DNA of 64,000 nucleotides, taken from assembly GCA_965240325.2 (NCBI GenBank), contig OZ251233.1, positions 992,001-1,056,000 on the forward strand. Reading direction: 5' to 3'. A program made the position numbers and the translations under genes. The DNA is from Rebecca billardiae RCC1528 (lineage: Eukaryota; Protista; Haptophyta). Below the pieces are notes generated by a model, which saw nothing but the letters and a program-made list of their open reading frames with translations, was not told where the DNA came from and ran no database searches. Below, piece after piece: positions 3,844 through 44,804 of this stretch (positions within the stretch are counted from its first letter, which is position 1; every line of letters starts with the position of its first letter).

Positions 3844-4306
3844 TGGGGCGATGGCCGACGCGACGGGAGTGGTGGGTTTGGCAGTCCGCGGCGGTTATCG
3901 CGTTATGACTGCCGCGTCGCTGCTCCGCCGCCGCCCGTGCCCCTCCCCGCTAGGTGGGCGTATACCTGGCCGGACGCGGGCTCGGCGCTCGCAGCGGCAT
4001 CGCCGGAGTGACCGCACGGTGACGAGATGTGAGTCGGAAGCAGCTCGCCTTTGCGGCGCGGGTACCAAGCGGAAAGTGAGCGTACCTGCAGGAGGGCCGA
4101 CCCTCGGCGTGACAGGCGCACCTTCGGGGCCGGTCAGGGCAGCCCACGTCGTGCAGCCGACCGCTTCCGCCGCGACTGCCCCCCGGCGCACCCTGCCCCG
4201 GCCGACGCCTGAGCACAGCGGCCCCGCCCGGGCCCGGGGCCCCCGGGCGGCAGGCCGCGGCGGCGCCGGCACACTCACGGACAGCCAGCGGCGCTCCTCC
4301 GCCTCC
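3844..4306 (+). repeat. ~460-bp direct repeat, copy 1 (copy 2 at 7793-8255)
   Basis: Apparently identical from TGGGGCGATGGCC to CTCCGCCTCC; the ORF track gives identical translations at both loci. Confidence 0.95.
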
Positions 4307-7792: not shown

Positions 7793-8255
7793 TGGGGCGA
7801 TGGCCGACGCGACGGGAGTGGTGGGTTTGGCAGTCCGCGGCGGTTATCGCGTTATGACTGCCGCGTCGCTGCTCCGCCGCCGCCCGTGCCCCTCCCCGCT
7901 AGGTGGGCGTATACCTGGCCGGACGCGGGCTCGGCGCTCGCAGCGGCATCGCCGGAGTGACCGCACGGTGACGAGATGTGAGTCGGAAGCAGCTCGCCTT
8001 TGCGGCGCGGGTACCAAGCGGAAAGTGAGCGTACCTGCAGGAGGGCCGACCCTCGGCGTGACAGGCGCACCTTCGGGGCCGGTCAGGGCAGCCCACGTCG
8101 TGCAGCCGACCGCTTCCGCCGCGACTGCCCCCCGGCGCACCCTGCCCCGGCCGACGCCTGAGCACAGCGGCCCCGCCCGGGCCCGGGGCCCCCGGGCGGC
8201 AGGCCGCGGCGGCGCCGGCACACTCACGGACAGCCAGCGGCGCTCCTCCGCCTCC
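7793..8255 (+). repeat. ~460-bp direct repeat, copy 2
   Basis: Matches 3844-4306. It is bracketed by a second ~52-bp direct repeat at 7673-7724 and 8339-8390. Confidence 0.95.
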
Positions 8256-8418
8256 CGCCCGCCCTCCCTGGCGTGGGATCGCCGCGCTGGGGTGGGTGCG
8301 GCTTGAGTCAGCGTCCACGGGGGGGGCGATGTGCTGCCGGGCGGGCGCTGCCTCGCCGCCCTGCCCCCCCCCGTGGCGACTGGCGGCCCCGCGCCGCAGA
8401 AGAGTCACTACAAAAAGT

Positions 8419-10040
8419 CTCCGCCAGCGGAGCATCCGGGCAAGGGGCCCAGACCCTCCGCCGGCGGAGATTTTTGTGGCCACGAAAAATCCCCGCTGGC
8501 GGAGCATGGAATGCTCCGCTGGCGGAGCCTGGGCTTGCAGGAATGACACAACAAACGTACTAGTTATGGTATCAGAAGTCTGTCAACCACCGAACAGCAG
8601 TCACCTCCGCTGGCGGAGCTCGCTAATGAGCCATGCCTTTTGTAAACTAATACACTCGGCACTTGAACTGAGCTCCGCTGGCGGAGCTTCGGGGGCGCCG
8701 AATGCCATTCTTGATGACCCACCTGACTTGAACTGAGCTCCGCTGGCGGAGCGTCGGTGGTCAGCGCCGTGTGTCATATCGGAGAAATAATGCTAAGCCT
8801 TTCAACGCATTCATACTCTGCTGTGCCACACATTCAACCTCCGCTGGCGGAGCTCACTGGCCTATTCGACTTGAACTGAGCTCCACTGGTGGAGCCTCGG
8901 CTGCGCCGAATGTCCTTAATCGATGACCCACTCTCGACTTGAGCTGAGCTCCCCTGGCGGAGCTTTGGTGGCGCCGCATGTCATATTGGAGTAACGCGGA
9001 AGCGTCAACCGTAGTCATATCTATATTGAGACTCAACCTCCGCTGGCGGAGCTCGCGGACCTACTAGTATTCAACTTTAACTGAGCTCCGCTGGCGGAGC
9101 CTCGGCTGTGTCGAATGTCCTTATCGATGGCCGACGTCTTGACTTGAGCTGAGCTCCGCTGGCGGAGCTTTGGTGGCGCCGCATGCCATTTATGGGAATA
9201 ATGTGAAGCCGTTAACCATAATCATATCCATATTGACACTCAACCTCCGCTGGCGGAGCTCACGGACCTATTCGACTTGAGCTGAGCTCCACTGGCGGAG
9301 CTTTGGTGGCGCCGCATATCATATTGGAGTAATGCGAAGCCGTCAACCGTAATCATACGTATCCATATTGATACTCAACCTCCGCTGGCGGAGCTCACTG
9401 GCCTATTCGACTTGAACTGAGCTCCGCTGGCGGAGCCTCGGCTCCGCCGAATGTCCTTATCGATGGCCCACGTCTTGACTTGAGCTGAGCTCCGCTGGCG
9501 GAGCTTTGGTGGCGCCGCATGTCATATTGGAGTAATGCAAAGCCATTAACTACCGTAATCATATCCATATTGACACTCAACCTCCGCTGGCGGAGCTCGC
9601 GGGCCTATTCAACTTGAACTGAGCTCCGCTGGCGGAGCCTCGGCTGCGCCGAATGTCCTTATCGATGGCCCGCTTGACTTGAGCTGAGCTCCGCTGGCGG
9701 AGCTTTGGTGGCGCCGCATGTCATATTGGAGTAATGCAAAGCCGTTAACTACCGTAATCATATCCATATTGACACTCAACCTCCGCTGGCGGAGCTCGCG
9801 GGCCTATTCAACTTGAACTGAGCTCCGCTGGCGGAGCCTCGGCTGCGCCGAATGTCCTTATCGATGGCCCACGACTTGACTTGAGCTGAGCTCCGCTGGC
9901 GGAGCTTTGGTGGCGCCGAATGTCATATTGGAGTAATGCGAAGTCGTTAACCGTAATACTATCCATATTGACACTCAACCTCCGCTGGCGGAGCTCACGG
10001 GCCTATTCAACTTGAACTGAGCTCCGCTGGCGGAGCCTCT
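8419..10040 (+). repeat. Subterminal array of ~26 quasi-palindromic CTCCGC-TG-GCGGAG motifs in ~195-200-bp higher-order units (left arm)
   Basis: Counted by eye. Each unit has three motifs separated by reused ~30-75-bp linkers. Confidence 0.9.
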
Positions 10041-13000
10041 GCTTGTGGTTTGCTGCAATTGGGGCTGGGCAGCCTGGGCTCAGCATGGGGCAGCTGTTCA
10101 CAGCCCAGGCGGGGCGTCACCGCCTGTGAGCCGTCGGTGGGCAGGGCCGACGGCGTCGCAGAGCTCATGCGTGGGAGCAGCGCGTCGAGGAAGCGATCAA
10201 GGTCGAGAAGGAAGGGGCAAGCAGCAGGGGCTGCCTGTACGTTTGTACATGCCTCCACACCGGTGCACATCACCCTTGCTCACTGCAGTCGTGAACAGTG
10301 CTGCCACTCATCTCATCATCGCTCACCATGCAGTGACGGCCGAGCTGCGGCGAACTCTCACAGGCACCGAACACGCATCGGCTGTGCCCGCTGGTGCTGG
10401 TATGCGCTGTCCTCTACTTGCTGTCGGACAGCAAGGAGACGGCACAGCCGCATCTGCGAGCGGGCGAGGTGATGCTGTCCAGTGTCCTCTGCTCAGCGAG
10501 GCTGAGAGGCTGAGCACGGATCACGGATAGTGAGCCCTGGTATCTCAACGCATCCAGGAGAGCAGTTGGTGCATGCCTGTGCTCAGACGTGCAGGACCAA
10601 CCATCCGGTGCTGATTCAAGCACCCGCGCCAACAGCGGCGGCACTCAACTCCACGCTGCTGATGCGGCCGCACAGCTGCAGGGATGGTACCACGGCGGGC
10701 GACGGCGGGCGCTGCAGCTGGCAGCTCGGTGGTGCCTGCCCGAGGGGCCTGGGCGCCGGGCGCACCGAGCGCGATGACGCCTCTCGCATCGCCTAGCGCG
10801 CTGGAGCCGCTGTCATCCGATGCTGCTGTGCCCGCGCCCAGCTTGGGCTGCAGCAGCTGCGCTCGACTCCGCGCCGAGTGCGGCGGCAGCAGCGGGGATG
10901 GTGCCACCGCGGGCTGCGGCAGGCGCTGCGGCTGGCAGCTCGGTGGTGCGCGCCCGATGGGCCTGGGCGCTGGGCACAGCGAGCGCGGTGACGCTGCTCG
11001 CCTCGCCCAGCGCGCTGGAGCCGCTGCCATCGCGCGCTGCGCTGCCCGCGCCCAGCTTGGGCTGCCGCAGCTGCACTCAACTCCTCGCCGAGTGCGGCGG
11101 CAGCAGCAGGGATGGTACCACGCGGGCGGCGGCTATCACTTTGGCTGGCAGCTCGGTGGTGCCTGCCCGAGGGGCCTGGGCGGTGGACGCACCGAGCGCG
11201 ATGACGTTGCTCGCCTCGCCCAGCGCGCTGGAGCCGCTGCCATCCGGCGCTGCGGTGTCCGCGGCTCCGCGCCCCGCCGGGGCAGCTAGCTGTCACAGCT
11301 GGCAGCTGCGCTCGACTCCGCGCCAGTGGGAGGGATGATGCCTCGGCGGGTGGTGGCGGTCGATGCAGCTGGCAGCTCGGTGGTGCGCGCCCGAGGGGCG
11401 TGACCGGCCTAGGCAGCAGCAGCTGCGCTGGACTCCGCGCCGATTGTGGCTGCAGCAGCAGGGAAGGCGCCACTGGCTGCGGCGGAGGTGGATGCAGCGA
11501 TCAGCTCGGTTGTGTGCGCGCGAGGGGCCTGGGCGGCAGACGCGCCCAATGCGGTGACGCCGATGCACGCGTCCGATATGCTGGCCAGCAGCAGCCGTTG
11601 TGACACTTCTTCCGCCGGCTGACGGCAGCAGGCGGTACCATCGGTCACATTGGTGAATTCGAATCGGGGAGAACCCGGCAGGCCTCAGCCCCGGACACTG
11701 CTGCCTGCCAATGACCTGTGAGGGCCGCAGGCCTTCCGGGGCACGGGGGCCGCTGCGGTCAGCTCTTTGAGCTAGCCCGGCGCCGGGCGCGCGAACAAGT
11801 ACGGCCCGGCGTCGGTGAGGCCGAGCAAGGCGCGCCGAAGTGCCGCGGCCCAGATCTCAGCGCACGCATCATCAGTACTACGACATCACTGCGCCGCGGA
11901 TATGCATCAGATAGCGCGACTGATGATGATGATGCGCCGCGCGCTCCCCGCTGACCGGAGCCCGACTACGAGTAGCAGGCGCGCATGATCTGAGCTGAGT
12001 ACGTAAGTAGCCCGTGTCATCCAGTGGCGGTGTCACACTTATGTGACTCAGGAGTCGGAGGAGTCGTTATCGTCATATCGTCATCATCATCATGAAGACG
12101 CGCAATAAAACGGTCATCAGGCGGACCTGCGCTACCATACGCCGTCAATGTAATGCTGAGGGCGAGGCCGGCAGCGTAGTCGTAACCTACTACTACTACG
12201 TACAGAAAAAAGTATAGCGCCATCATAAGAAGAGTAGCTGCGTGTGACTCGTCACCGCGTTCTCAAAACTCCTGCGCTGCTGATCGGGACTCGGACGTAC
12301 GCCGTCTTAAGCCTATATACCGGCGTGCGGTCGCAAGTCAATTCACGCGGCCCCTGCGACTCAGCGGCTCACTCACCTGGCTCATACGCAGCAACCGAGC
12401 AGTCACGGAGATCTGAGCAGCAGCTGTTAATTACCAGCCTGCTGCTGCTGCTGCCTGCGGCCGCACGCGGCGTGGAGTCGAGCGCACAGTCCGCAGCTGC
12501 CCGAACGGTTCAGCAGCATCAAATGGCAGCGGCTCGAGCGTGATAGGGGAAGCGAGGGGCGTCAGCTCGCTCGGCGCGTCCGTCGCCCAGGCCCCTTGGG
12601 CAGGCACCGTCGAGCTACCAGCTGCAGCGACTGCCGCCGCTCGCCGTGGTACAATCCCTGCTGCTGCCGCCGCACGGGTGCGGAGTCGAGCGCACCTCGT
12701 GCTGCTCCGGCTGGGCGCGGACACCGCAGCGCCGGATGGCAAACGGCTCCAGCGCGCTGGGCGAGGCGAGCAACGTCATCGCGCTCGGTGCGTCCACCGC
12801 CCAGGCCCCTCGGGCAGGCACCACCGAGCTGCCAGCCAAAGTGATAGCCGCCGCCCGACGTGGCAACATCCCTGCTGCCACCGCACTCGGCGCGGAGTCG
12901 AGCGCAGCTGCGGCAGCCCACGCTCGACGCGGGCACAGCAGCGCCCGGTGGCAGCGGCTCCAGCGCGCTGGGCGAGGCGAGCAACGTCACCGCGCTCGCT

Positions 13001-13939
13001 GCGCCCAGCGCCCAGGCCCCTCGGGCGCGCACCACCGAGCTGCCAGCTGCAGCGCCTGCCGCAGCCCGCGGTGGCACCATCCCCGCTGCTGCCGCCGCAC
13101 TCGGCGCGGAGTCGAGCGCAGCTGCTGCAGCCCAAGCTGGGCGCGGGCACAGCAGCGTCGGATGACAGCGGCTCCAGCGCGCTGGGCGATGCGAGAGGCG
13201 TCATCGCGCTCGGTGCGCCCGGCGCCCAGGCCCATCGGGCAGGCACCACCGAGCTGCCAGCTGCAGCGCCCGCCGTCGCCCGCCGTGGTACCATCCCTGC
13301 AGCTGTGCGGCCGCATCAGCAGCGTGGAGTTGAGTGCCGCCGCTGTTGGCGCGGGTGCTTGAATCAGCACCGGATGGTTGGTCCTGCACGTCTGAGCACA
13401 GGCATGCACCAACTGCTCTCCTGGATGCGTTGAGATACCAGGGCTCACTATCCGTGATCCGTGCTCAGCCTCTCAGCCTCGCTGAGCAGAGGACACTGGA
13501 CAGCATCACCTCGCCCGCTCGCAGATGCGGCTGTGCCGTCTCCTTGCTGTCCGACAGCAAGTAGAGGACAGCGCATGCCAGCACCAGCGGGCACAGCCGA
13601 TGCGTGTTCGGTGCCTGTGAGAGTTCGCCGCAGCTCGGCCGTCACTGCATGGTGAGCGATGATGAGATGAGTGGCAGCACTGTTCACGACTGCAGTGAGC
13701 AAGGGTGATGTGCACCGGTGTGGAGGCATGTACAAACGTACAGGCAGCCCCTGCTGCTTGCCCCTTCCTTCTCGACCTTGATCGCTTCCTCGACGCGCTG
13801 CTCCCACGCATGAGCTCTGCGACGCCGTCGGCCCTGCCCACCGACGGCTCACAGGCGGTGACGCCCCGCCTGGGCTGTGAACAGCTGCCCCATGCTGAGC
13901 CCAGGCTGCCCAGCCCCAATTGCAGCAAACCACAAGCAG

Positions 13940-15362
13940 AGGCTCCGCCAGCGGAGCTCAGTTCAAGTTGAATACGTCCGTGAGCTCCGCCAGCGGAGGT
14001 TGAGTGTCAATATGGATAGTATTACGGTTAACGACTTCGCATTACTCCAATATGACATTCGGCGCCACCAAAGCTCCGCCAGCGGAGCTCAGCTCAAGTC
14101 AAGTCGTGGGCCAGATGTCGATAAGGACATTCGGCGCAGCCGAGGCTCCGCCAGCGGAGCTCAGTTCAAGTTGAATAGGCCCGCGAGCTCCGCCAGCGGA
14201 GGTTGAGTGTCAATATGGATATGATTACGGTAGTTAACGGCTTTGCATTACTCCAATATGACATGCGGCGCCACCAAAGCTCCGCCAGCGGAGCTCAGCT
14301 CAAGTCAAGACGTGGGCCATCGATAAGGACATTCGGCGGAGCCGAGGCTCCGCCAGCGGAGCTCAGTTCAAGTCGAATAGGTCCGTGAGCTCCGCCAGCG
14401 GAGGTTGAGTATCAATATGGATATATGATTACGGTTGACGGCTTCGCATTACTCCAATATGATATGCGGCGCCACCAAAGCTCCGCCAGCGGAGCTCAGC
14501 TCAAGTCGAATAGGTCCGTGAGCTCCGCCAGCGGAGGTTGAGTGTCAATATGGATATGATTATGGTTAACGGCTTCACATTATTCCCATAAATGGCATGC
14601 TGCGCCACCAAAGCTCCGCCAGCGGAGCTCAGCTCAAGTCAAGACGTCGGCCATCGATAAGGACATTCGACACAGCCGAGGCTCCGCCAGCGGAGCTCAG
14701 TTAAAGTTGAATACTAGTAGGTCCGCGAGCTCCGCCAGCGGAGGTTGAGTCTCAATATAGATATGACTACGGTTGACGCTTCCGCGTTACTCCAATATGG
14801 CATGCGGCGCCACCAAAGCTCCGCCAGGGGAGCTCAGCTCAAGTCGAGAGTGGGTCATCGATTAAGGACATTAGGACATTCGGCGCAGCCGAGGCTCCAC
14901 CAGTGGAGCTCAGTTCAAGTCGAATAGGCCAGTGAGCTCCGCCAGCGGAGGTTGAATGTGTGGCACAGCGCAGAGTATGAATGCGTTGAAAGGCTTAGCA
15001 TTATTTCTCCAATATGACACACGGCGCTGACCACCGACGCTCCGCCAGCGGAGCTCAGTTCAAGTCAGGTGGGTCATCAAGAATGGCATTCGGCGCCCCC
15101 GAAGCTCCGCCAGCGGAGCTCAGTTCAAGTGCCGAGTGTATTAGTTTACAAAGGCATGGCTCATTAGCGAGCTCCACCAGCGGAGGTGACTGCTGTTCGG
15201 TGGTTGACAGACTTCTGGTATAACTAGTTTGTTGTGTCAATCCTGCAAGCCCAGGCTCCGCCAGCGGAGCATTCCATGCTCCGCCAGCGGGGATTTTTCG
15301 TGGCCACAAAAATCTCCGCCGGCGGAGGGTCTGGGTCTTGCCCGATGCTCCGCTGGCGGGGA
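13940..15362 (-). repeat. Mirror subterminal CTCCGCCAGCGGAG array (right arm, about one unit shorter)
   Basis: Reverse complement of 8419-10040. Confidence 0.9.
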
Positions 15363-16084
15363 TTTTTTGTAGTGACTGCCCTGGCGCCGCCCACCTTTTG
15401 TCCACCGGCCACCCGGGATTGGCCCTACAAGTTACAAGTACGACGGGGCCGGCTTCGACCCATTCGACGGTATGATGATTTAACGACACAGGTAGGGGGC
15501 CGCGCCGGGCGGTTTTTTCAATATGACCCCCGCGTGCGCAAAATAATGCAAACCGGCAAACAGCGCGCTCGGTACGCCGACATGCAGTTTGAAACAGTGA
15601 GTAGTATATGACCCATATGCACATGCACTTTGTCAAAACAATACGGCCCTTGGACCGGCGACCAAGTTTTCAATAGCGTCGATGACACGATGACTAAACT
15701 TTACTGACAATGTGACGGCCTTCGATCTTCGACCCCACGGCCGTCCAACGACATACGCGGAATGACCTTGGGCGCGGCCTTTTAAGCTGTGATGGACAGC
15801 AATACCCCCCTCAAAAAATCGAATAAAACTCACCCTCCAACAGCCCTAAAATCGTCCCCCGTCCCCTTTTCTTTGATCAAAAGATCTTTTTGACAACGTA
15901 GTGAGGGCCCCCGGCGGGGCTCCACGCTACGCGCTCCGCCCTGCACCGCGGGCCATTAAAGTCAACCAAGCTCGGTGGAGCGCGGACTGAAGATGTGAGA
16001 TGTAGTCACTGCCACCGATCGTGTCCGATCGCGCCGGCCCGTGGTGCTGTGGAGTGGTGCAGAGCCAGAATTTACTCAGTTAGA

Positions 16085-20398: not shown

Positions 20399-20699
20399 GC
20401 GCGCCAAGTCTGGTGGAGCATCTACATATGATGCACTGCACAGTCCACCGTGGCAGACGGCTGACTGAGGTGCCCGCCGCGAAGCAGTGCTGAAGTACGA
20501 CGTTTCTTATTATTGCACGACGTGCCGACAGCAATAATAAGTAGTATATATATGATCGGCTACGCCGATCTTCGGGTAGTAAACAACGAAGTTGAGGGCG
20601 CACGGCCCTGGTATCTAGGGTCTATCCTGCCATTTTTGCAGGAATCTGGAGTTTCCAGGAAGAGTGCGGGAAGCTGTAAGTGGGCGCGCACGCGCGCGC

Positions 20700-20722
20700 G
20701 CTCTGATTGGCCGACGTGACAC
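20700..20722 (+). promoter_or_regulatory. Possible promoter motifs (inverted CCAAT, GACGTGAC) upstream of the primase ORF
   Basis: CTGATTGGCCGACGTGAC inside the left end of the element. Short motifs only. Confidence 0.25.
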
Positions 20723-20755
20723 GCCCGATTCCTCGTCATCCCTAGCTGTTGAGCG

Positions 20756-22399
20756 GTGCAGTCGGGCCCACCCGACCACGGCCGCCGTGCTGGCGGGCGG
20801 CACCCGACCACGGCCGCTGTGCTTGGCGGGCCACCTGACCGCCCGACCCGACCCGACTACCCGACTGCCAGTGCCACGCCGCGCCAAGACCCCCCCCCCC
20901 CCACCCGACCGCCCGACCCGACCCGACCGCCCGACTGCCACGCCGGTCCGGGGCTAGTCCGGACCAGCCCGGGCCATGGCCGCCGGGCGCCGCGCCAAGA
21001 CCCCCCCCCGACCCGACCCGACCACCCGACTGCCTCGGACTGCCACGCCCGGCCGCCCGTGCTACCACCGGCCGGGGCAAATCGCGCGCGCGCCGGCGGC
21101 GACGAGCCGTGCACCCACGAGATTGTGTTCCTCCGCGACGCCGACGGCCACAGGGTGGGCGGTCGGCTGCACGTGCCGAGCGCCTCTCTGCCGCGGCTGG
21201 ACGCGCTCGTCGCGTCGTCGTACGCGCTGCTTGGCGCGCGCGCGCCCATGGTCGTCGAGACGTTCGGCGCGCGCGCGCGGTTCGGCGTCGACGTGGATCT
21301 GCGCTTCTCCCGCATGCCCTCGTACGACGCCCTCGCCGCGCTGCTCGTCGACCTCTACGACGCGGCAGACGCTGCGTTCCACGGCGTGCCCCGTCCCGCG
21401 CGCGGCCACGCCGTGCACGTCTCGGCGCGCGCGGCGACGCCCTCGCGCCTCGGGGTCGCCGCGGACGACGCCGGCCTGTTCCGCGCGGGCCTGCACGCCA
21501 CCTGGGGCGACAGTGCGGTCCTGAGCTCCTCGGAGGCGCAGCGCGTCGCGCGGGAGCTGGACGTGCGGCTGCAGGCGAGCCCTGTGCGCGCCCTCTTTGC
21601 CAAGGCCGAGGTCGATGGGTCGATCTACCGCTCCGGCTTGCGCTTGCCGTTCACGGCCAAGGCGGACGGCGGCCCGCCCTACCTGCCCGCCGCCGTCGTC
21701 GCTGCCGACGGCTCGGGCGTCGTGCGCTGCGCCTGGCTCTCGGCGCTGCCGGCCGGGCACGCCCTGCGGCAGCGCTGCGAGCCGGCGCGTTGGCTCGCGC
21801 TGACGCGGCTGCGCACCGAGCGCTTCGAGTTCGCCGCGAGCGCCGCGGCGGGCAGCGCCCGCCCCGGCGCGCCGGCGGCGGCGCGGCGTGCGCCGCCGTG
21901 CCCGCCGCCCCACCCGCAGGCGCCGCTCTGCGCGCGCGCCGCGGGGCGCGGCGCGCTCGTCGCGTGGCTCAACGCGCAGCTCGACGCGCACGCGGCCGGC
22001 GCAGGCGCCACCGGGCACTGGCCGCGCGTCCAGCGGGTGTACGCAGGGAGCACGCCGCACGGCCGCATCGCGACGTGCTCGACCACGAGCAGGTGGTGCG
22101 AGCGCAAGCGCGGCGAGCATGCGAGCAGGACCGTCTACTACGTCGCCAACGCCGACGGCATGGACCTGTGCTGCGGTGATCCCGTGTGCGTCGCCGCTGC
22201 TGGCGGCCGGCGCGGCGCGCGCGCCGTTCGCCTCCGGGGGCTGCCGTACCGCCATCTGCCCAGCGGCGCGTGCGCGCGCGGGTGCTGCGGCCCCGCGCAG
22301 CAGCCCGCCCGTGAGGCCGGCTGCGGCACCGCCGCGGCGCTGCCCGCCCCTGGCCAGACGTTTGCGGCGCCCTGCTCCGACGCCTTCGACGGAACTTAG
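20756..22399 (+). CDS. Archaeo-eukaryotic primase (NCLDV/herpes/PrimPol clade) with C-terminal Zn finger; true start uncertain
   Basis: AEP motifs I RFGVDVD, II GLHATW and III VDGSIYRSGLRLPFTAK. Zn finger SRWC-x5-EH...CCGDPVC, as in PrimPol/UL52/PBCV-1 A468R-like proteins. No introns. The domain begins near 21110; the upstream in-frame part is repeat translation from a GTG. Confidence 0.85.
   Translation: MQSGPPDHGRRAGGRHPTTAAVLGGPPDRPTRPDYPTASATPRQDPPPPTRPPDPTRPPDCHAGPGLVRTSPGHGRRAPRQDPPPTRPDHPTASDCHARPPVLPPAGANRARAGGDEPCTHEIVFLRDADGHRVGGRLHVPSASLPRLDALVASSYALLGARAPMVVETFGARARFGVDVDLRFSRMPSYDALAALLVDLYDAADAAFHGVPRPARGHAVHVSARAATPSRLGVAADDAGLFRAGLHATWGDSAVLSSSEAQRVARELDVRLQASPVRALFAKAEVDGSIYRSGLRLPFTAKADGGPPYLPAAVVAADGSGVVRCAWLSALPAGHALRQRCEPARWLALTRLRTERFEFAASAAAGSARPGAPAAARRAPPCPPPHPQAPLCARAAGRGALVAWLNAQLDAHAAGAGATGHWPRVQRVYAGSTPHGRIATCSTTSRWCERKRGEHASRTVYYVANADGMDLCCGDPVCVAAAGGRRGARAVRLRGLPYRHLPSGACARGCCGPAQQPAREAGCGTAAALPAPGQTFAAPCSDAFDGT
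20835..21096 (-). repeat. Inverted partial copy of the G-rich array (left inner arm of the primase element)
   Basis: CCCGACCCGACCCGAC..., CGCCAAGACCCCCCCC (twice) and GGGCTAGTCCGG. Approximate reverse complement of the array beginning near 23345. Confidence 0.9.
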
Positions 22400-22649
22400 C
22401 TGCTGCAGCTAGCTGCTCGGCCGCGCCACTTGTTAATGTTAGTCTGAGTTTAGAGTTAGGACGACGACGCGGCAATCAATAACTGCAACAGTCGCGTATC
22501 GGTCAGAATGCATCCTCAGCACACAGTGGTCAGTGCGGACGGGCAGACGACGTCAGCATTATTATATATTCAGAATTATACATATCGGAGTTGGTTGGAA
22601 GAAGCTGCGCGGCTGAGCGGTCGAACGCCTACGTGCCCACGATGATGCG

Positions 22650-23360
22650 GCGCCGGCGCCCCCACGCCCCCATTTGTCCACCCGGACAAGGCGCGCGCAC
22701 GGCGCGGCGGGCAGTCACGGTTGGCTCAGCCGGGCGGGCCGCTCGTGCGCGGCGCATCGACCCGTCTCCTCGCGCTCGGCGCCGCCCGCAGCGTGCGCGT
22801 CCGGCCACGCGCGCCGCGGTCGCGCGGCGAGCGCGCTGGCGACCGAGGTCGTCGGCCGCACGGCGCGCGCGCGCGCGCCACGCCCCCATTTGTCCACCCG
22901 GCGCGGCGCGCGCGCGCGCGCGGGGCCCGCGCGCGCGGCCAAGGTCGTCAGCCGTGCGACGGCGCGCGCGCGCGCGCCACGCCCCCATTTGTCCACCCGG
23001 CGCGGCGCGCGCGCTGCGCGGCGCGGCGACCCGTCCGTCCTCGCGCTGCGCCGCCCGCGGCGTGCGCACCCGGCCACGCGCGCCGCGGTCGCGCGGCGAG
23101 CGCGCTGGCGACCGAGGTCGTCGGCCGCGCGACGGCGCGCGCGCGCGCGCCACGCCCCCATTTGTCCACCCGGCGCGGCGCGCGCGCGGCGCGGCGCGGC
23201 GACCCGTCCGTCCTCGCGCTGCGCCGCCCGCGGCGTGCGCACCCGGCCACGCGCGCCGCGGTCGCGCGGCGAGCGCGCTGGCGACCGAGGTCGTCGGCCG
23301 CGCGACGGCGCGCGCGCGCGCGCCACGCCCCCATGTGTCCACCCAGCGCGGCGCGCGCGC
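22650..23360. repeat. Tandem repeat of ~100-220-bp units marked by CCACGCCCCCATTTGTCCACCC (5 copies)
   Basis: Motif near 22662, 22878, 22977, 23150 and 23323. Confidence 0.9.
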
Positions 23361-23394
23361 GTTGTGCCCCGGCCGGGCGGCCGGGGCGTGGCCC

Positions 23395-23923
23395 CGAGTC
23401 GGGCAGTCGGGTCGGGTCGGGCGGTCGGGTGGGGGGGGGGGGTCTTGGCGCGGCGCGGCGCGGCGGCCATGGCCCGGACTGGTCCGGACTAGCCCCGGAC
23501 TGGCGTGGCAGCCCCGGACTGGCATGGCAGTCGGGCAGTCGGGTCGGGTCGGGCGGTCGGGTGGGGGGGGGGGGTCTTGGCGCGGCGTGGCACTGGCAGT
23601 CGGGCGGTCGGGTCGGGTCGGGCGGTCGGGTGGGGGGGGGGGGGTCTTGGCGCGGCGGCGGCGGCGGCGGCCATGGCCCGGACTGGCCCGGACTAGCCCC
23701 GGACTGGCGTGGCAGTCGGGCGGTCGGGTCGGGTCGGGCGGTCGGGTGGGGGGGGGGGTCTTGGCGCGGCGTGGCACTGGCAGTCGGGCGGTCGGGTCGG
23801 GTCGGGCGGTCGGGTGGGGGGGGGGGTCTTGGCGCGGCGGCGGCGCGGCGGCCATGGCCCGGACTGGCCCGGACTAGCCCCGGACTGGCGTGGCAGTCGG
23901 GCGGTCGGGTCGGGTCGGGCGGT

Positions 23924-23958
<35 letters not shown>

Positions 23959-24420
23959 CTTGGCGCGGCGTGGCACTGGCAGTCGGGCGGTCGGGTCGGG
24001 TCGGGCGGTCGGGTGGGGGGGGGGGGGTCTTGGCGCGGCGGCGGCGCGGCGGCCATGGCCCGGACTGGCCCGGACTAGCCCCGGACTGGCGTGGCAGTCG
24101 GGCGGTCGGGTCGGGTCGGGCGGTCGGGTGGGGGTGGGGGGTCTTGGCGCGGCGTGGCACTGGCAGTCGGGCGGTCGGGTCGGGTCGGGCGGTCGGGTGG
24201 GGGGGGGGGTCTTGGCGCGGCGGCGGCGCGGCGGCCATGGCCCGGACTGGCCCGGACTAGCCCCGGACTGGCGTGGCAGTCGGGCGGTCGGGTCGGGTCG
24301 GGCGGTCGGGTGGGGGGGGGGGGGGTCTTGGCGCGGCGTGGCACTGGCAGTCGGGCGGTCGGGTCGGGTCGGGCGGTCGGGTGGGGGGGGGGGTCTTGGC
24401 GCGGCGGCGGCGGGCGGCCG
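23395..24420 (+). repeat. G-rich higher-order tandem array: 11 subunits GGCAGTCGGG(CGGT/T)CGGG...Gn-TCTTGGCGCGGCG and 5 GGACTAGCCCC linkers
   Basis: Read directly; dense GGG runs give strong G-quadruplex potential. Confidence 0.95.
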
Positions 24421-25923
24421 CCGCCAGCGGCGGCAGCTGGCGGCGCCGCGGCGCGGCGGCGCGCGCGCGGACCGTCGCTGACTATACAGAGGAATCAAAC
24501 AGTGTCGTGCACACTATGGGCAGCCGGTGACTTCCGGGACATGTCCCTACAGAGGGGTAGAAAGCCGCTCAGCCTGGGTATCTGGGGGGTCGCCCCTATG
24601 GGCCCCCTAGGGGCAGGGGGGGAGGGTGCCGTGACACTACAGATTCCTGCAAAAATCACAGGGTACACCGTATCTAGTTGTCGCGCGCGTTCTTCACGAC
24701 TGCTGAATCACGTTGCGCGCGCGCCCCGGCCCGGCGCGTCGCCGTACACGAGGGCGACTGTGAGCACGGGTTAGACTGAGAGGGGAGCACGGCGTCGCCC
24801 GTAGCATATGCCACCTCGCCATCGTCGCAGACTCGCCGCTCGCAGATCTAAGCCTGTGGCTCGTCTCGTCGGTCAGGCAGTCAGGCATCCGTCGAGTGAT
24901 GACTGCGTCAGACGACTGCGCCGCTGCGCGTTGCAGCCGCAGCCATACCGTACATACATACGCTCTCAGCGGGACTACGCGCGAGTTGTTCATCTGCCTT
25001 CTAACGGTGCCGGCACGTGGCGCGACGATTCTGGCGTCATTATCACTTGACGACTCGACTGATCACGACGAGTGCCGTCATCGTCTGGTTCCCCTGAGAA
25101 GTCTTCTGGAATGCATCAGCGACATGCTCCCGCAGCCTGGTCAGTGGTCCAAGCCAGTCACATCCGGCAGCCTGACATGGCTCCGGTCACTGTCCGGGAC
25201 GTCCAGCAGGGGTGCATTCAGACTCTCTGGGGGGGTCTGGGGGGGGGCTCCCCCCAGCCGATCGAAGGACCAAATACGCCTCAATAAGGCCCCAACTCGC
25301 CAGAATTCGCATAGCAGACCGTGTTCGCTGGTGTTGGCTGAGGGCTGCGTCATGCGGCGTCGGCTCTGCGCCGGGCGGCCATGACGCATTACACACAGCC
25401 CCGATATCGGCGCCTCCCTCGCGAGTCAAGACGTAGCGCAGTGCAGGATCGAGCAACGCATTGACCGCTGCGGCGCACCGCGCAGGCCACGCCGCACCTC
25501 AGCACTCGCGAACAAGCTCTGAGCCAGCCAGCTGTGGCAGTCCTCTGAGGAGCTGCAGCCAAGCACGAGCTCGTGCGCATACCCGTGGCACCACGAGCTG
25601 ACGGCGCGGCCCGGGGCGCGAGCAGCTAGAAGCCGACAAGCTCATGCGCACGCCCGCACCGCCGCGAGGTGTGGCCGCCGCGCCGGCGCGAGCAGCTCGA
25701 CGCGGATAGCGCGCAGCTTGCTCGAGTCGACGAGCAGCTTCTCGCCCATCGGTGACTCTCAGTGCACGAAGGTGCACCCGGGGCGCGAGCGCGACAGGGT
25801 GCCGCGGCCAACCAGGGGATGCGCCCGGATCAAGGCCTCCAAGGCGTCTCGTCTCCTCGCCCGCTCGGCGGAGCTCCATCGTGCGAGAGACCGGTCCGGG
25901 AGCCCCCAAAAAAGTTCAGCACG

Positions 25924-26630: not shown

Positions 26631-28293
26631 GGATATCCCTCACTGCGAACTCAGCCCTCTCGCGCTGACGCGGCGCGTAGACCTTGCGGCCTGCTGCGTG
26701 CCGCGAGCTATCGGACAGCGCGGCCCGCCGGCCGCGGGCCTTGGGCGGCGGGTCGACGGCTCCAGGCAGCTGCGGAGGACGCGGAGGCCGGTCGCATCCC
26801 GGCCAATGCGTGGGCATCGGCCCGGCGGTTGGGCCCGTCAGCACGTCGGCAAGCGCTCTGATGCCACTCGACTCTCGAGACTGGCTGCCGAGCCGTGTCG
26901 CGCAACCGTGCCCGGCAAGACACGTGGGTCCGCGCCGAGCGTTCACCGGCCTCCGAACCCGCGCACGCCTGCCAGCCCAGGGCCAGGGCACGCGCCGTCG
27001 AGCTGCCCAGTCGCAAGCAGCTCGACAGCCCCGCTGTGTGCGCGCGCCCTGCCGGTCCGTCCGCTGCCCGCTCGAGGGCGAGCACGCGGCGCCTCACCTG
27101 TCGACCACGACAGCGCGCCTCGCGTGCACACTCTGACGGCGAGGCCCGGGATCTGGGCATGCGATGGCACTACCCGCGCCTCCGCCAAGTCTCGGCCTGG
27201 CCGAGGGGTGCAACACCGGCCGAGCCCTCGGCCCGGCGCGCCGCCGCCAGCCTGAATGCGCTGAAAAGCCCCGAAGCCGTGCGCGGCAGGCCTGCGCGTG
27301 CGAGCGGCGATGGGCGTGGGCGGCGTTGCGCGGCGCGAAGTGGGCCAGGGGCATACGTCAGCCTCGACTCCGCCGCGTCGCGCGCGGCCGAGCGCGCGCT
27401 CTGCGCGCGGGGCGCGCGACGCGAGGCGGGCGCTCGCGCACACACACGGCCATCCCATCCGGGAGGCTCCGCGACGGCTCAAGCCCCGCGCCGCCTCCGC
27501 AACCCGACTCACGGCCGCAGGAGCGCCCGGCGCGAGCGGCCCGGCGAAGGTCGGGCCGCCTCCCCTCGTGAGCAACCCGAGTCTTCGTCAGCCTCTGTGA
27601 GCCCGGAGTGCTGCGCAGTCACGAGTTTAGCGAAGCACCCTGAACCCCGTACTACAGTTTACTATGATTTAACGTGCACACTTGGTTAAGGCGTGATATC
27701 TGATGTACTCATTTCGTGTTGTATTGCGTACCCACCTCTTTATGCTATGCACTTGCATATGTATGTGATTAAGGCGACAACCGTCCAAAAACGGACAGAG
27801 ATGAGATAGGCAGAGAGCCTAGAAGTGACGGTTCGTTAGCTCGTACCATTATGAAACTTTACCACCTTGATAACCGTATGATACTGACCAGGGCGGGAAC
27901 GTCGATTCAAGCTACCCGCGCAATACCATATCGCGTCGCTTTGATGAATCTGAGCAGTGAACAGCTATCCAGAGAATTCGTTCGATATCTCACCTTTTTA
28001 TAATCAGTTCAACACACGAATCTTGACTATCAGAAAGGTATCAGAGATGACTTCGTCCAATTTGATTCCGATTTCTTCTATTACTTACTATCCAAGGATT
28101 AAGGAGCAGTACAAACGCAATCATGAGCAGCGAAATGGGGTCTCTATGCTGCGGATTTCACACCTAAATCCACCTACAAAAATCCCCCAAATCCTGCGCG
28201 CATCCTCTTTTTTGATTTTGCGGAGCACGTGCGCCGCCCCCCCCCCGGCTTTCGCTCACGCTCAGACCTTTCGGGGGGGGGCGTGCGCCATTA

Positions 28294-30410
28294 TGGCCCG
28301 CGGTGCAGGGCGGAGCGCGTAGCGTGGAGCCCCACCGGGGGCCCTCACTACGTTGTCAAAAAGATCTTTTGATCAAAGAAAAGGGGACGGGGGACGATTT
28401 TTAGGGTTGTTGGAGGGTGAGTTTTCGATTTTTTGAGGGGTACGGTACAATGCTGTCCATCCCAAGCTTAAAAGGCCGCGCCCAGAGTCATTCCGCGTAT
28501 GTCGTTGGACGGCCGTCACATTGTCAGTAAACGAATCTGCGCCATTGTGGTAATGCCCGGGGCCGGACTCCGCCCAGCACCAGACAACAGTGATCCACTC
28601 CGGACTGGGCGGTCCGGCGATCGCTCCCCGCGATGAGTCTAGATGACCAGTGGACCTCTCGACCCGCAGTCAAACGCCGGCGACGCGGCGCGGGCGCGCG
28701 CGCACTTGTCGCGCAAGACAGATCAGAAATCCTGATTCCTGGACGCGCACGCGAACCGGCTCGGCATGCGGAACGCGTTGATGCGCTTGGGGACGCACGA
28801 CATCGGGCCGTTCTGAAACGACACCGGGCGAAACTCTACCGCCTGCACGCGCGGACCGCAGGCCGCGTGACGACTGCGACACTGCGCGACGCGAAGGAGC
28901 AGGTGCTGGCGCCGCAGATGGCGGTGCGGGCGTTCTGCCCGAGCTGCAACAACCCGCTGCTCTCGGGCCAGGTGCATCAGCGCATCCAGGACCGCCGCTG
29001 CCACGTGCTAACCAAGGTGGTGGGCAAGACACGCGACCGTGTGCGAGCAAGGCGTGCCAAGATGATCGACACGGCGAAGCAGGTGGTGATCGAGGCGCTG
29101 AGCCTGATCATGGTGAGGCGCATCTTCTCGACCTGCCCGACGCGCAGACCACGCAGGCGTCGCTTCCGGGCGCGTGGGACTCGCGCACCAAGACGGTGTG
29201 GCGCGTGGACCCTGTCGCCAAGGCGGTCAACTCCGCCTGGCCGCTGGAGGTGGTCGCTCGCCGCGCCTGGCCAAGCTGGTGCACGAGGGGCCAGCTGATG
29301 GCGGCGGTGGTGCCACCGATGAAGCTGATCTTCGTGCAGCGCAAGGACGCGTCGGGCCCGTTCTCCCACGTGCTCAAGATCGTCTTCCGCGTCGCGACGA
29401 TGAGCGTGGCGGCCCCTCACAACCTGCAGCTGCCGGCGTCGCTGCTCTGTGCGCAGCGCGCGCGCGCGCGTGCGCGCGCGACGGGCACGTGGCGCGCCGA
29501 CCAGCCGTACGGCGCTGACTGTTGACGCACCTCGCGCATGCGCTACCCCGGCCGCGCCGCCGCCGCCGCCGCGCAGGCATGCTCTCGTAGGAGGAGACGG
29601 CGGAGCTGCGCGCACACATGGCCGCGCGCGGCTCTCGGTCGGACGGTCGGCGATCACGGGCGCGCTGCCGGCCCGGCGCGCCGCTGAACGACGAGTAGGC
29701 CGCGCTGGAGGAGTACGTCCGCCGCCGCGCTCCGCCTGCGCGAGCAGCGCTCCGCCGCGCCCGACCCGCTGGCCGAGCAGCTGCGCAGCGACCGCGCCAT
29801 CGCAGAGCAGCTGCAGCGCGAGGAGATGGCGGCACGCGCGGGCGGCGCGCCCGTGACGCTGCACTCGGCCGAGGTCGACGAGGACGCGCAGATGGCGCTG
29901 GCGCTGCTGCTCGTGTGCGAGGCGTGCGACCAGGACACACGCGCGCTGCGCAACGCTGAGCGCCGGATCCGTTTTCGGCGCCGTAAGGTACGCAAGGCGC
30001 TGGCAGCGGAGCGCACCGGGGCGGCGGCGCATGCGCGCACGCGGCGCGCTCGCGGTCGATGCGCGGCAACTCCAACCGCCTCGGCAAGCGCAAGCAGCGG
30101 GACGAGGGCGGCGCCGCGGCGGCGGGTGCGAGGAACAAATCGGACGAGCGCGCCAAGTCCCGACGCATCGCCAACGCCGCCAAGCTGTTCGAGGACATGG
30201 ACGGCGACGAGATCGCGGCCGCGGCGCACGCGGCGGGCAAGCTGGACTGCCAACTTGCGACGCGTCTCTCGCAGACTGCCACTGCCACTGGGCCTGGCCC
30301 ATTATAAATCTTCATACGACATTGAGCAGCCGAGCAGCCGACGGAGGGTGCACCGCGGGCCCCTAACTGCGTTGGTTCTACGGAAGGACCGCGGAACGCG
30401 GTCCGATAAT
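28294..30410 (+). mobile_element. Helentron/HLE2-like family A element, copy A1 (~2.1 kb, both ends present)
   Basis: Asymmetric 13-bp IR GGCCCGCGGTGCA at the 5' terminus (28295-28307) and ~50 bp inside the 3' end (30349-30361). A hairpin GGACCGCG-GAA-CGCGGTCC follows (30386-30404). AT-rich junctions. Confidence 0.75.
28700..30300 (+). pseudogene. Frameshifted remnant of the element-A protein (CxxC, possible RepHel N-terminal DUF6570-like pieces, MIU-like motifs); second remnant at 2600-3760 (-)
   Basis: High-GC3 segments broken by stops and frameshifts: FLDAHANRLGMRNALMRL, FCPSCNNPLLSG, LEVVARRAWP..RGQ..VVP..LIFVQRK, SDRAIAEQLQREE, EDAQMALAL. Confidence 0.5.
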
Positions 30411-32412
30411 TATGGCGCACGCCCCCCCCGAAAGGTCTGAGCGTGAGCGAAAGCCGGGGGGGCGGCGCACGTGCTCCGCAAAATCAAAAAAGAGGGCGCA
30501 GGATTTGGGGGGATTTTTGTAGGTGGATTTAGGTGTGAAACCGCAGCATAGAGATTAGAGACCCCATTTCGCTGCTCATGATTGCGTTTGTACTGCCCCT
30601 TAATCTTTGAATAGTAAGTAATAGAATAAATCGGAATCACATAGGACGAAGTCATCTCTGATACCTTTCTGATAGTCAAGATTCGTGATGTGTTGAACTG
30701 ACCATATATAAAAGGTGAGATATCGAACTAATTCTCTGGATAGCTGTTCACTCCTCACTCTCAGATTCATCAAAGCGACGCGATATGGTATTGCGCGGGT
30801 ATAGCTTGAATCGACGTTCCCGCGCGCCCTGGTAGCAAGAATGGATTGCCACCCGCATTGACGGGCCTGAAAATCTCATGAGCATTGGAATTTCTACCGC
30901 TTCACGCACGACCCTTGATTCTCTCCCATTTAATACCGGCGCGTCCGGGAGAGCTTGACGAATATGAACGATAAACTGGTTCCCGCGCGCGATTCATAAC
31001 CGTATCCTTTCTGATTATGATAGTTGTCTCCCGTTGATTAATACTGCTCATCGCACGGCTTCGCGCGATGATACAAAAGCTGGCCACACGGAGCCTCTGA
31101 GGCGGGCAATGCGTGACGCAGGCACGATCGTTCAATCCGACAAGACTCAGCGCAGGTGCGCGCAGCTGCGCGGCGGGTCCCAACGGCCGTCGCCATCGCA
31201 TTCGTGCCTCGCTCACTCCGCGCGCCCCGCCCTGCCATGCCTCTTCGGCCCAGTGCGTTTTCCAATCGAGCACTCGTCGCAGGATTCCCGACGGCTGGCC
31301 GAGTTGTCGACCGGCTCGTCGGCTCCTCGACTCTGGGTGCGAAAGCGCGTGGCGCGTGGGGGCGAGGCGCGTTTCTCGCTGTATTTCCAGCTGACCATGC
31401 GCGCGCCCGCGCGCGCCACGCCGCACGCCCGCGCAGCTGAACTCTCGGCATGTTCGCGGGAAGTCGCTCGCCCAAGCCCTCACGCTCGCGCCGTCCATGA
31501 CCATGGCCGCGCTGTGATGGCTCCGCGTGCGGAGTGCTGACCGCTCTGGCTGCGCATGACGGCGCGGCAAGCAGCGCGCGCAGATCTGCGGGCGACGAGG
31601 CTGGGCGCCAGTCCTCGCAGCACGAGGCCGAGCGCGGACATCTGTTTTCCTCGCGACGAGGCTGGGCTTAGATCTGCGAGCGGCGAGTCCGCGACGATGG
31701 CGAGGTGGCATATGCTACGGGCGACGCCGTGCTCCTCTCTCGCCCGTGCTCGCAGTCGCCCTCGCGCTCCAGGCCGTCGGCCGACAGCACCCGCGGAGGC
31801 GCCGACGCGCACAGCGGCCCTCGCACTGCATCGATCGACGCGGCGGCGAGGCTGACAGACAAACTGACAAAGGTCGCAATCCAGGGTCTCACGTGCCGTG
31901 GGGAGCTCATTGTGCCCGCATTCGAGGGGAAGACGCTGAGGGCGTGCAAGGAGCGGCTGCTGCGGCTGCGGGAGGTCGTAGACAGGCTCGAGCCGCGGCT
32001 GCTCGCGACGCTCTTTCCCGCCGCCGACCGGCCGACGAGCTGCGAGCTCAGAGCTGCGAGCTCATTCATCCGACGCTGCGCCGATCCCGCCGAGCGCGCG
32101 AGGATGTGCGAGGCTGAGACGGGCGAGCTGCCGAGCGCGATCTCTGCGCTGCGCGCGGCCCCAGCAGGGCTGCCCGAGGCGCACCGGGCGGAGGCGCTGC
32201 GGCTGCTGCGCCGTTGAGTTCGACACGGCGCAGCCCCCCGAGCCCCGTCGATCGCGTCGATTACTCGCGCCCGCGCGCCGGCCGCGCCTCCTGCACGGCG
32301 ACGTGCCGGGCGCGCGCATCGTGATTCGGTGAAGAACGCGACAACTACCAGGGCCGTGCGCCCGCCTCAACTTCGTTGTTTACCACCCGAAGATCGGCGT
32401 AGCCGATCATAT
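30411..32412 (+). mobile_element. Helentron/HLE2-like family B element, copy B1 (~2.0 kb)
   Basis: 5' TATGGCGCACGCCC; inverted GGGCCGTGCGCC at 32351-32362; hairpin GATCGGC-GTA-GCCGATC at 32392-32408, then ATAT. Directly abuts the 3' end of A1. Confidence 0.7.
31672..32217 (+). pseudogene. Protein-like fragment inside B1
   Basis: Open frame ...EVAYATGDAVLLS...AARLTDKLTKVAIQGLTCRGELIVPAFEGKTLRACKERLLRL... with coding-like codon use and no clear start. Confidence 0.35.
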
Positions 32413-32655
32413 ATCTGATGACGATATTACACGCGTCGCGTACACTATATACTGTGACGCGTCGTCGTCGTCTCGGTCTCCAGGCGTCGTTGCACGTAAC
32501 ACGTCGTCGGCGTCGTCATCATCATCGTCATCGCGATCATCGCGCGATGGCGTCAGCAGCATAGTGAGCATGAGACTGAGTGCAGCAGCAGCATCATATA
32601 TAGCAGATCATTGTCGTAACGACAGGCATCAACTAGTAGCTTATTATTCTTATTA

Positions 32656-38085: not shown

Positions 38086-39474
38086 ATGGTCGACCGGAAG
38101 AACCGCAAGTGCGATCACACGGGCTGCACCGCGCGGCCTCACTTCGGCATGGCGGGTGACGCGCGCGCCAGCCGGTGCGCTGCGCACAAGCTCGCCGGCA
38201 TGGTCGACCCGAAGAACCGCAAGTGCGATCACACGGGCTGCACCACGTGGCCTCACTTCGGCATGGCGGATGACGCGCGCGCCAGCCGGTGCGCTGCGCA
38301 CAAGCTCGCCGGCATGGTCGACCTGAAGAACCGCAAGTGCGATCACACGAGCTGCACCAAGCAGCCTTCATTCGGCATGGCGGGTGACGCGCGCGCCAGC
38401 CGGTGCGCTGCGCACAAGCTCGCCGGCATGATCGACCTGAAGAACCGCAAGTGCGATCACACGGGCTGCACCAAGGTGCCTTCATTCGGCATGGTGGGTG
38501 ACGCGCGCGCCAGCCGGTGCGCTGCGCACAAGCTCGCCGGCATGGTCGACCTGAAGAACCGCAAGTGCGATCACACGGGCTGCACCACGCGGCCTCACTT
38601 CGGCATGGCGGGTGACGCGCGCGCCAGCCGGTGCGCTGCGCACAAGCTGGCCGGCATGGTCGACCTGATTCACCCCAAGTGCGATCACACGGGCTGCACC
38701 AAGGATCCTTCATTCGGCATGGCGGGTGACGCGTGCGCCAGCCGGTGCGCTGCGCACAAGCTGGCCGGCATGGTCGACCTGAAGCACTCCAAGTGCGAAC
38801 ACACGGGCTGCACCAAGGAGCCTTCATTCGGCATGGCGGGTGACGCGCGCGCCAGCCGGTGCGCTGCGCACAAGCTCGCCGGCATGGTCGACCTGAAGAA
38901 CCGCAAATGCGATCACACGAGCTGCACCAAGGAGCCTTCATTCGGCATGGCGGGTGACGCGCGCGCCAGCCGGTGCGCTGCGCACAAGCTCGCCGGCATG
39001 GTCGACCTGAAGAGCCGCAAGTGCGATCACACGGGCTGCACCACGCGGCCTGCCTTCGGCATGCCGGGTGACGCGCGTGCCAGCCGGTGCGCTGCGCACA
39101 AGCTGGCCGGCATGGTCGACCTGAAGCACCCCAAGTGCGATCACACGGGCTGCACCACACGGCCTACATTCGGCATGCCGGGCGACACGCGCGCCAGCCT
39201 GTGCGCTACGCACAAGCTGGCCGGCATGAAGCGCCTTCGGAGTCTTGCGCACAAGCGCGCGCTGCAGCAAGACACGAGGAGCCCCAACGAAGTGATGAGC
39301 GCCGCCAAGCGACAGCGGAAGCGCACCAGCAGCACAGCCACTGCCCCGGCTGATGTTGTGGCAGCGCCGCGGCCGCGATCGGCATCGCAGCTGCCGCCGC
39401 TGGTCACAGCCAGCGTTGTATCGACGCCGTCGCGTGCACGACCCGTGGTGATGGCCAGGCGGGTGAGGGCCTGA
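38086..39474 (+). CDS. EsV-1-7 cysteine-rich repeat protein (10 x 38 aa) with basic, NLS-like C-terminus
   Basis: Ten 114-bp units MVDLKNRKCDHTGCTxxPxFGMAGDARASRCAAHKLAG match the EsV-1-7 consensus (C-x4-C...C-x2-H). First ATG at 38086; frame open from 37999; AKRQRKR in the tail. Confidence 0.9.
   Translation: MVDRKNRKCDHTGCTARPHFGMAGDARASRCAAHKLAGMVDPKNRKCDHTGCTTWPHFGMADDARASRCAAHKLAGMVDLKNRKCDHTSCTKQPSFGMAGDARASRCAAHKLAGMIDLKNRKCDHTGCTKVPSFGMVGDARASRCAAHKLAGMVDLKNRKCDHTGCTTRPHFGMAGDARASRCAAHKLAGMVDLIHPKCDHTGCTKDPSFGMAGDACASRCAAHKLAGMVDLKHSKCEHTGCTKEPSFGMAGDARASRCAAHKLAGMVDLKNRKCDHTSCTKEPSFGMAGDARASRCAAHKLAGMVDLKSRKCDHTGCTTRPAFGMPGDARASRCAAHKLAGMVDLKHPKCDHTGCTTRPTFGMPGDTRASLCATHKLAGMKRLRSLAHKRALQQDTRSPNEVMSAAKRQRKRTSSTATAPADVVAAPRPRSASQLPPLVTASVVSTPSRARPVVMARRVRA

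Positions 39475-44073: not shown

Positions 44074-44118
<45 letters not shown>

Positions 44119-44769: not shown

Positions 44770-44804
<35 letters not shown>

Follow-up and report, generated by a model that had tools for sequence, protein, structure and literature searches.

A transposon-like insertion in the haptophyte Rebecca billardiae, with ends resembling those of Merlin and a gene for a predicted primase of giant-virus type

Merlin elements have imperfect terminal inverted repeats (TIRs) of 24–462 bp that start with GG, target site duplications (TSDs) of 8–9 bp and internal tandem repeats (PMC8101967), and they are defined by a DDE_Tnp_IS1595 transposase. Gene sequence can also travel between TIRs. 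[quoted passage not shown] Virus-type replication genes are known in mobile DNA as well, namely in Polintons, Polinton-like viruses (PLVs), Teratorn and transpovirons (PMC6431247). We have analysed a stretch of 64,000 nucleotides from the haptophyte Rebecca billardiae RCC1528 (NCBI GenBank assembly GCA_965240325.2, contig OZ251233.1, positions 992,001 to 1,056,000 of the forward strand; the window hereafter), in which a unit with Merlin-like ends carries the gene of a predicted archaeo-eukaryotic primase (AEP) of the type found in nucleocytoplasmic large DNA viruses (NCLDVs). On balance, we lean towards reading this unit as a non-autonomous, Pack-type cut-and-paste transposon in which the primase gene is a passenger.

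The insertion comprises 4,051 bp between two 8-bp duplicates. Its TIRs, 30 bp each, lie at 20619–20648 (+) and 24640–24669 (−), start with GGT at both ends and agree at 26 of 30 positions, while twelve shifted registers give 3–9 matches. Outside them the TSD GTATCTAG stands in exact copies at 20611–20618 and 24670–24677 and has no further occurrence in the window. We have checked all 191,611 pairs of identical 8-mers with a spacing of 100–15,000 bp in the window for an enclosed inverted 30-mer match. Such a match reaches at least 22/30 inside 39 pairs and at least 26/30 inside 23, and 22 of these 23 are palindromic 8-mers in longer inverted duplications. The element is the sole exception, and a chance pairing of TIRs and TSD is thereby ruled out. 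In addition, the TIR core, searched over the whole window with up to 3 mismatches, is found at two places only, both of them ends of the element.

The flanks, once rejoined, align over the joint with the reverse complement of ~32287–32414, an empty paralogous site (− strand) ~8 kb away, with 62 identities, 1 mismatch and 5 gap positions on the left side and 52, 5 and 16, respectively, on the right. The paralog is 4 bases shorter at the joint than the rejoined flanks. Since it carries several other small indels elsewhere, these 4 extra bases leave the TSD intact as a call. Overall, the insertion, with its TIRs, TSD and empty site, is real and cleanly bounded. An earlier note, drawn from the letters of the window alone, had described GGT-starting 30-bp TIRs, an exact 8-bp TSD and flanks homologous to an uninterrupted paralog near 32300–32362 with 4 extra bp, and all three calls are borne out: the TIRs were recovered with the same identity and passed the chance test, the TSD has its two occurrences only, and our alignment agrees with the paralog down to the 4 bases. 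The target site itself is repeated in the window, at 20548–20613 plus 24678–24854, at 32287–32414 and at 31665–31764. The left flank of the element also shares its final six bases with the right end of a separate unit at 27892–30824, and its insertion may have taken place where another repeat ends.

Short TIRs flanked by an exact duplication of 8 bp are characteristic of a DDE transposase, and 8-bp TSDs occur also in hAT, P and some Mutator-like elements. As AEPs have, to our knowledge, neither nuclease nor strand-transfer activity, mobility must come in trans. Within the element, none of the 48 stop-to-stop frames of at least 30 aa matches any Pfam family, DDE_Tnp_IS1595 included, in a scan that is insensitive, since the primase is unmatched as well. 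The same scan gives no helicase, polymerase, integrase or capsid gene, and the non-repeat sequence outside the primase amounts to a few hundred bases, with little room for a second gene. The absence of transposase, helicase and capsid genes noticed earlier is thus upheld. Outside the element, no transposase was matched by Pfam in 133 frames of at least 130 aa from window positions 1–41,500 (three frames over an array of EsV-1-7 repeats were excluded), and no partner transposase with the same TIRs was seen in these frames or, by the TIR core, over the whole window.

The ends of the element therefore resemble those of Merlin/IS1595 elements in their ~30-bp imperfect GG-starting TIRs and 8-bp TSD. 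The resemblance extends to internal tandem repeats, which in one dinoflagellate Merlin family are likewise duplicated in inverted orientation (PMC8101967). The difference is that a primase gene stands in place of the DDE_Tnp_IS1595 transposase, so the earlier description as Merlin-like holds for the ends and fails for the transposase. The element works like a non-autonomous Merlin, but it cannot be filed as one, because a survey of 3 Haptista genomes records no Merlin (PMC8101967) and 8-bp TSDs also arise from IS4-type elements in a brown alga (PMC3627910).

The cargo is best seen in the open reading frame (ORF) of 383 aa that runs from ATG to stop at 21248–22399 (+), with AEP motif I at 21290, motif II at 21488, motif III at 21608 and zinc-finger ligands between 22097 and 22189. 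Aligned to viral AEPs, the protein keeps motif I as DVD (DxD), motif II as GLH (GxH) and motif III as EVD (hD), and its C-H-C-C ligands C335, H342, C360 and C365 line up with the viral ones. The Atlas language-model search places it next to viral clusters with AEP_C962R / Herpes_UL52 (top score 0.98, 218/256 features), at a recognition value of 2260, which is slightly below the tool's 2300 mark; 11–40% of the members in the nearby clusters carry PF03121. In HHalign, the profile of the window protein and 7 close relatives matches a profile made from 19 viral proteins with a probability of 98.9% (E 1.5e-17, 270 columns). A structure model of the window protein reaches a mean predicted local distance difference test score (pLDDT) of 79; it was built on 27 sequences, 17 of them viral rows, and the fold therefore leans on that alignment. 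The single-sequence fold was unusable (pLDDT 35.5). Foldseek matches the model to C962R of African swine fever virus (ASFV) and UL52 of herpes simplex virus with E of 3e-6 to 4e-6, and to NCLDV proteins in BFVD with a best E of 6e-14. In structural re-alignment, which was limited to Foldseek's top 1,000, the AEP domain of ASFV C962R is the best match (Z 18.2, root-mean-square deviation 3.0, 211 residues), with UL52 at Z 13.9–14.3 and human PrimPol at Z 13.4.

Other searches are silent. The window protein has no match in Pfam, none in PDB by sequence, none in phages by tblastn, and none in a word-based protein search at near and shorter lengths. An exact look-up in the protein collection finds neither its 383-aa nor its 548-aa reading, while 3 of the 7 other window ORFs are present there. 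Taken together, motifs, profiles and model support a predicted AEP primase of the NCLDV-herpesvirus clade, as the earlier giant-virus-type call had it. The stand-alone AEP and zinc finger fit the layout of A468R-like phycodnavirus proteins. The clade is shared by NCLDVs and herpesviruses and is used by large DNA viruses (PMC4538821), and its described members (A468R-like proteins, ASFV C962R, UL52) as well as PrimPol show the same motifs I–III followed by the C-H-C-C finger and the same fold (PMC4538821, PMC5295015, PMC10516667). Compared with viral AEPs, the window protein is only ~25% identical to the nearest and sits in a nuclear TIR element; compared with C962R, it has no PriCT-2, D5_N or helicase. 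PrimPol has the DxE variant of motif I (PMC5295015), where the window protein has DVD. A host PrimPol orthologue is ruled out by this DxD motif and by nearest folds that are viral.

From left to right, the element consists of the TIR, ~180 bp of unique sequence, a 265-bp repeat arm, the primase frame, ~250 bp with a higher AT content, a GC array of irregular units, a G-rich array, ~220 bp of unique sequence and the second TIR. More than half of it is taken up by G-rich tandem arrays, which recur in inverted form near the left end. Tandem-repeat analysis resolves the GC-rich array at 22650–23361 (+) into irregular units with periods of 43, 99 and ~173 bp, while the G-rich array at 23345–24420 (+) has a ~184-bp unit in 5–6 copies with 92% matches. 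The left subterminal arm at 20831–21096 (−) repeats the G-rich units of the right side in inverted orientation (80–92% to those at 23349–24384). The earlier one-gene description stands as regards the gene, whereas these arrays (22650–24420) and the inverted copy had gone unmentioned. The G-rich array has 21 of the 29 plus-strand G-quadruplex-type (G4-type) motifs in the window, and the left arm 3 of the 12 minus-strand ones. One ~184-bp unit holds 4 such motifs, while 2,000 shuffles have a mean of 1.6 and attain 4 in 24 cases, and the motifs of the array are copies of this one unit. No Rfam family was found in the element sequence scanned, and the right end has no notable fold (z −1.9).

The start of the primase gene is a problem. 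Between 20753 and 22399 no stop interrupts the frame, and its only in-frame ATG inside the element is the one at 21248, residue 52 of the model. Upstream of this ATG, however, the stretch 21101–21247 (+) aligns with the relatives P0002 and P0004 and with viral AEPs, and corresponds to model residues 8–49, two strands and a helix with a block pLDDT of 72–93. The ~50 codons before 21248 have a GC content of 0.54 at second positions (GC2) and 0.92 at third positions (GC3), against 0.76 and 0.82 in the preceding 50 codons. Coding homology begins at 21101, within ~5 bases of where the repeat arm ends (21096), and the codon bias switches there. The single intronless ORF with AEP motifs reported earlier is right in frame and motifs, with the correction that its first ATG lies behind conserved coding sequence. 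Translation from 21248 would leave out the first two strands and the helix of the AEP domain, which makes a 5' defect in this copy probable. Considering that the N-terminal module of PrimPol binds the template strand (PMC5295015), a product begun at 21248 is likely inactive. Capture may have clipped the 5' end, or repeats may have overwritten it; alternatively, the true start may be the ATG at 20976, with a slip in the assembly or in this copy. This ATG, which lies in the left arm and out of frame with the primase, has good context, is one base out of frame and stands ahead of a C9 run at 21001–21009, whose ten sister runs on the right side are 11–33 long. An upstream intron restoring the start was rejected, since the GTAAGT at 20676 has no preceding ATG inside the element.

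As regards relatives, a HMMER search of 1.84 billion representatives returned 8 hits. Seven of them (P0001–P0006 and P0008) are unnamed proteins, 30–49% identical to the query, on contigs of 1.1–2.6 kb (Logan, ENA, JGI), and their Ala/Arg/Gly/Pro-rich composition suggests GC-rich DNA. P0002 is the only relative that covers the whole query, the others being partial, and P0011 aligns to P0002 in two blocks of ~85% identity with a stretch between them that does not align, the pattern expected of a frame-shifted copy. The remaining hit, P0007, carries PF23162 and led to 16 further such proteins and 46 IMG/VR loci; the one annotated locus among these, L004, has an NCLDV capsid gene nearby. In a tree of 27 rows, the six rows of the relatives' group make up one side of a 100/100 branch. 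The tree omits P0001, P0003, P0006, P0010 and P0011 (near-twins or fragments), P0012, P0013, P0015, P0016, P0025, P0029–P0052 and 38 of the 46 viral loci, and its ends are trimmed. Since it has long branches, biased composition and no outgroup, it names no donor.

The GC3 of the primase is 0.94, compared with 0.77–0.99 in the 7 other window ORFs and 0.27–0.64 in the eight of 46 viral loci measured; the GC content of the window is 55–86% per kb. Six scans of viral contigs, metagenome contigs and prokaryote genomes with group members or their alignment did not find the loci of the close relatives, a scan of viral contigs for the locus of the window protein gave no match, and the protein clade is absent from IMG/VR in the scans run. 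The TIR patterns have no hit in viral contigs (IMG/VR) or in prokaryote genomes. A looser pattern has 15 viral hits, none of which starts with GG, has an inverted partner above 20/30 or lies near an AEP gene, and the left end gives short chance matches only against plasmids. Because the codons are host-like and the nearest relatives, at 30–49%, lie outside the viral collection by the scans run, the sequences indicate that no fresh import from a virus lies behind the primase gene. The codon bias and the ~25% identity led us to reject a known giant virus as the source of a recent, direct capture. The viral-primase capture proposed earlier thus survives as membership of a virus-related clade, and not as direct or fresh capture. 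Overall, the comparison points to an uncharacterised AEP branch without a solved structure or a close viral member.

We read the unit, with slight preference, as a Pack-type transposon with a passenger primase. Under this reading a transposase encoded elsewhere, of Merlin/IS1595-like DDE type, would bind the TIRs, excise the unit and insert it by an 8-bp staggered cut, a step that the primase itself would be unable to perform. The primase gene would have come from the NCLDV pool long ago, would then have acquired GC-rich algal codon usage, and would have been captured between the repeat arms in the way seen in Pack-MULEs and in elements that carry Fanzor. A captured, 5'-clipped gene is supported because the start of homology and the switch of codon bias coincide with the end of the repeat arm, and the passenger view draws on this clipped 5' end, on the host-like codons and on the fact that Pack-type capture is common (PMC6431247). 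Also counted for it is the second inverted-repeat-bounded unit of the window (27892–30824), which holds unrelated, non-transposase sequence. Like a Pack-type element, the unit has TIRs and a TSD, is transposase-less by our scan and holds gene sequence; it differs in that its cargo is a near-complete, virus-related primase, its TIRs are only 30 bp, and its length is 4 kb against mostly 1–2 kb (PMC6431247). With Fanzor1 carriers, some of them transposase-less, it shares a non-transposase gene common to large DNA viruses in a TIR element (PMC3627910), but the cargo is an AEP primase and not a TnpB-like protein, and one copy is known.

On the other hand, several points weigh against a passenger gene. 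From 21098 onwards, 433 codons run without stop or shift and all catalytic and zinc-binding residues are kept, and such an intact frame is as compatible with a working gene as with a young capture. The near-copies among the relatives look frame-shifted (P0011 against P0002), a pattern that would be typical of transposon-borne genes. The missing start may be an assembly slip at the C9 run, because the ATG at 20976 is one base off and stands before a run whose sisters are longer. In addition, neither a transposase partner nor a second copy was seen within the 64-kb window, and the lack of Merlin in the surveyed Haptista genomes counts here too.

These points lead to the first alternative, which we hold to be possible but less probable. 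Here the primase would be a long-standing resident gene of an undescribed TIR transposon family, as Fanzor1 is in several superfamilies, while cut-and-paste would still depend on a DDE transposase in trans. It might help by re-priming behind the G-quadruplex-rich arrays of the element, or by fill-in at the donor gap after excision, which would raise copy number. Only tentatively, then, would this eukaryotic family keep a giant-virus-type primase to prime its own synthesis, with the window holding one member and the seven divergent relatives being others. The intact motifs and unbroken frame are in its favour, together with the seven non-viral-looking relatives and the 100/100 branch that sets six tested rows apart, although no relative is shown in a transposon, the locus scans gave no DNA context, and the tree has the weaknesses named above. 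The decayed-looking near-copy P0011 would suit it as well, but broken-looking relatives may stem from introns, contig ends or gene-calling errors. The primase is paired with G4-rich arrays, PrimPol re-primes behind G4s (PMC5295015), and a virus-shared accessory gene in transposase-less TIR elements has precedent (PMC3627910); yet the G4 motifs are one unit copied, and internal tandem repeats are common in primase-less Merlin elements (PMC8101967). Finally, this copy has no in-frame start ahead of the N-terminal module.

We consider it improbable that a repeat-filled non-autonomous unit was inserted first and that part of a domesticated host primase gene entered it afterwards, in a single copying event, to become what is now a young pseudogene unlinked to mobility. 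The 5'-clipped coding sequence does abut the repeat arm, its codons are host-like and there is no second copy in the window, but the whole AEP and zinc-finger region is present and lesion-free, and no parent gene is known.

Polintons, PLVs, Teratorn and transpovirons are multi-gene and have polymerase, helicase, integrase or capsid genes; the element differs from Polintons, PLVs and transpovirons in being a single gene in 4 kb, over half of it repeats, with none of those four gene types found. Least probable of all is that the unit is an integrated small linear replicon, a transpoviron-like satellite that would take helicase and polymerase from the host or from a giant virus and whose primase would begin synthesis on the G-rich arrays. 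The arrays are indeed inverted at both ends and, like telomeric repeats, sit towards the 3' end of each strand, the clade is one used by large DNA viruses (PMC4538821) and the related locus L004 lies beside an NCLDV capsid gene. Against this, a DDE transposase is indicated by the short GG TIRs and their exact 8-bp TSD, Pfam gives no helicase, polymerase or integrase in the 48 frames, the host-like codons argue for long nuclear residence, and the scans run on IMG/VR returned no match to the protein clade or to the TIR.

Other features of the window are as follows. The unit at 27892–30824 is bounded by long inverted repeats (424 bp, 90%), with no convincing TSD found. No Pfam family matches its interior, which seems to contain an intron-split gene with a CxxC motif; Atlas gives a weak lead to Rpr2/Rmp24-like proteins (0.83), and most of the interior recurs inverted at 2503–3798 (96–99%). 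A sequence of 140–225 bp is common to three places at 85–93%, namely 744–883, 15737–15956 and 28293–28516, the last one inside this unit. The region 8403–15377 is a large nested inverted duplication (8403–9844 with 13935–15377, 96%; 9477–11402 with 12588–14507, 94.5%), foldback-like, filled with ~200-bp tandem arrays and without a Pfam match. An identical direct duplication of 463 bp at 3844–4306 and 7793–8255 is a recent copy or an assembly artefact. Among the genes, a 462-aa ORF at 38086–39474 (+) has ten EsV-1-7 cysteine-rich repeats (PF19114, E 3e-133), a domain named from a giant virus, and is followed by a CYTH-domain gene (PF01928) at 39681–40484 (+). The 2,681-aa ORF at 41445–49490 (−) has a putatively separase-like C-terminus. 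A light-harvesting gene near 59 kb matches algal light-harvesting complex proteins, many of them of chlorophyll-c type. The base composition of the window and the style of its introns would suit a haptophyte-like alga.

Cargo capture by TIR transposons is known already, and for virus-shared cargo Fanzor is the precedent; what is unusual is a stand-alone primase as the cargo. A TIR transposon with a stand-alone NCLDV-type AEP was not found in our searches of the open-licence literature. A viral insertion in an oomycete has a primase gene, which the text consulted does not describe as TIR-bound (PMC8204020). At the least, the element shows a route for giant-virus replication genes to move within algal nuclei. 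It also bears on the arrival of PrimPol-like genes in eukaryotes, for which a viral origin has been proposed (PMC4538821). If it is true that the primase serves the element, it would be a link between cut-and-paste and self-synthesising transposons, a combination that has been speculated upon (PMC6431247).

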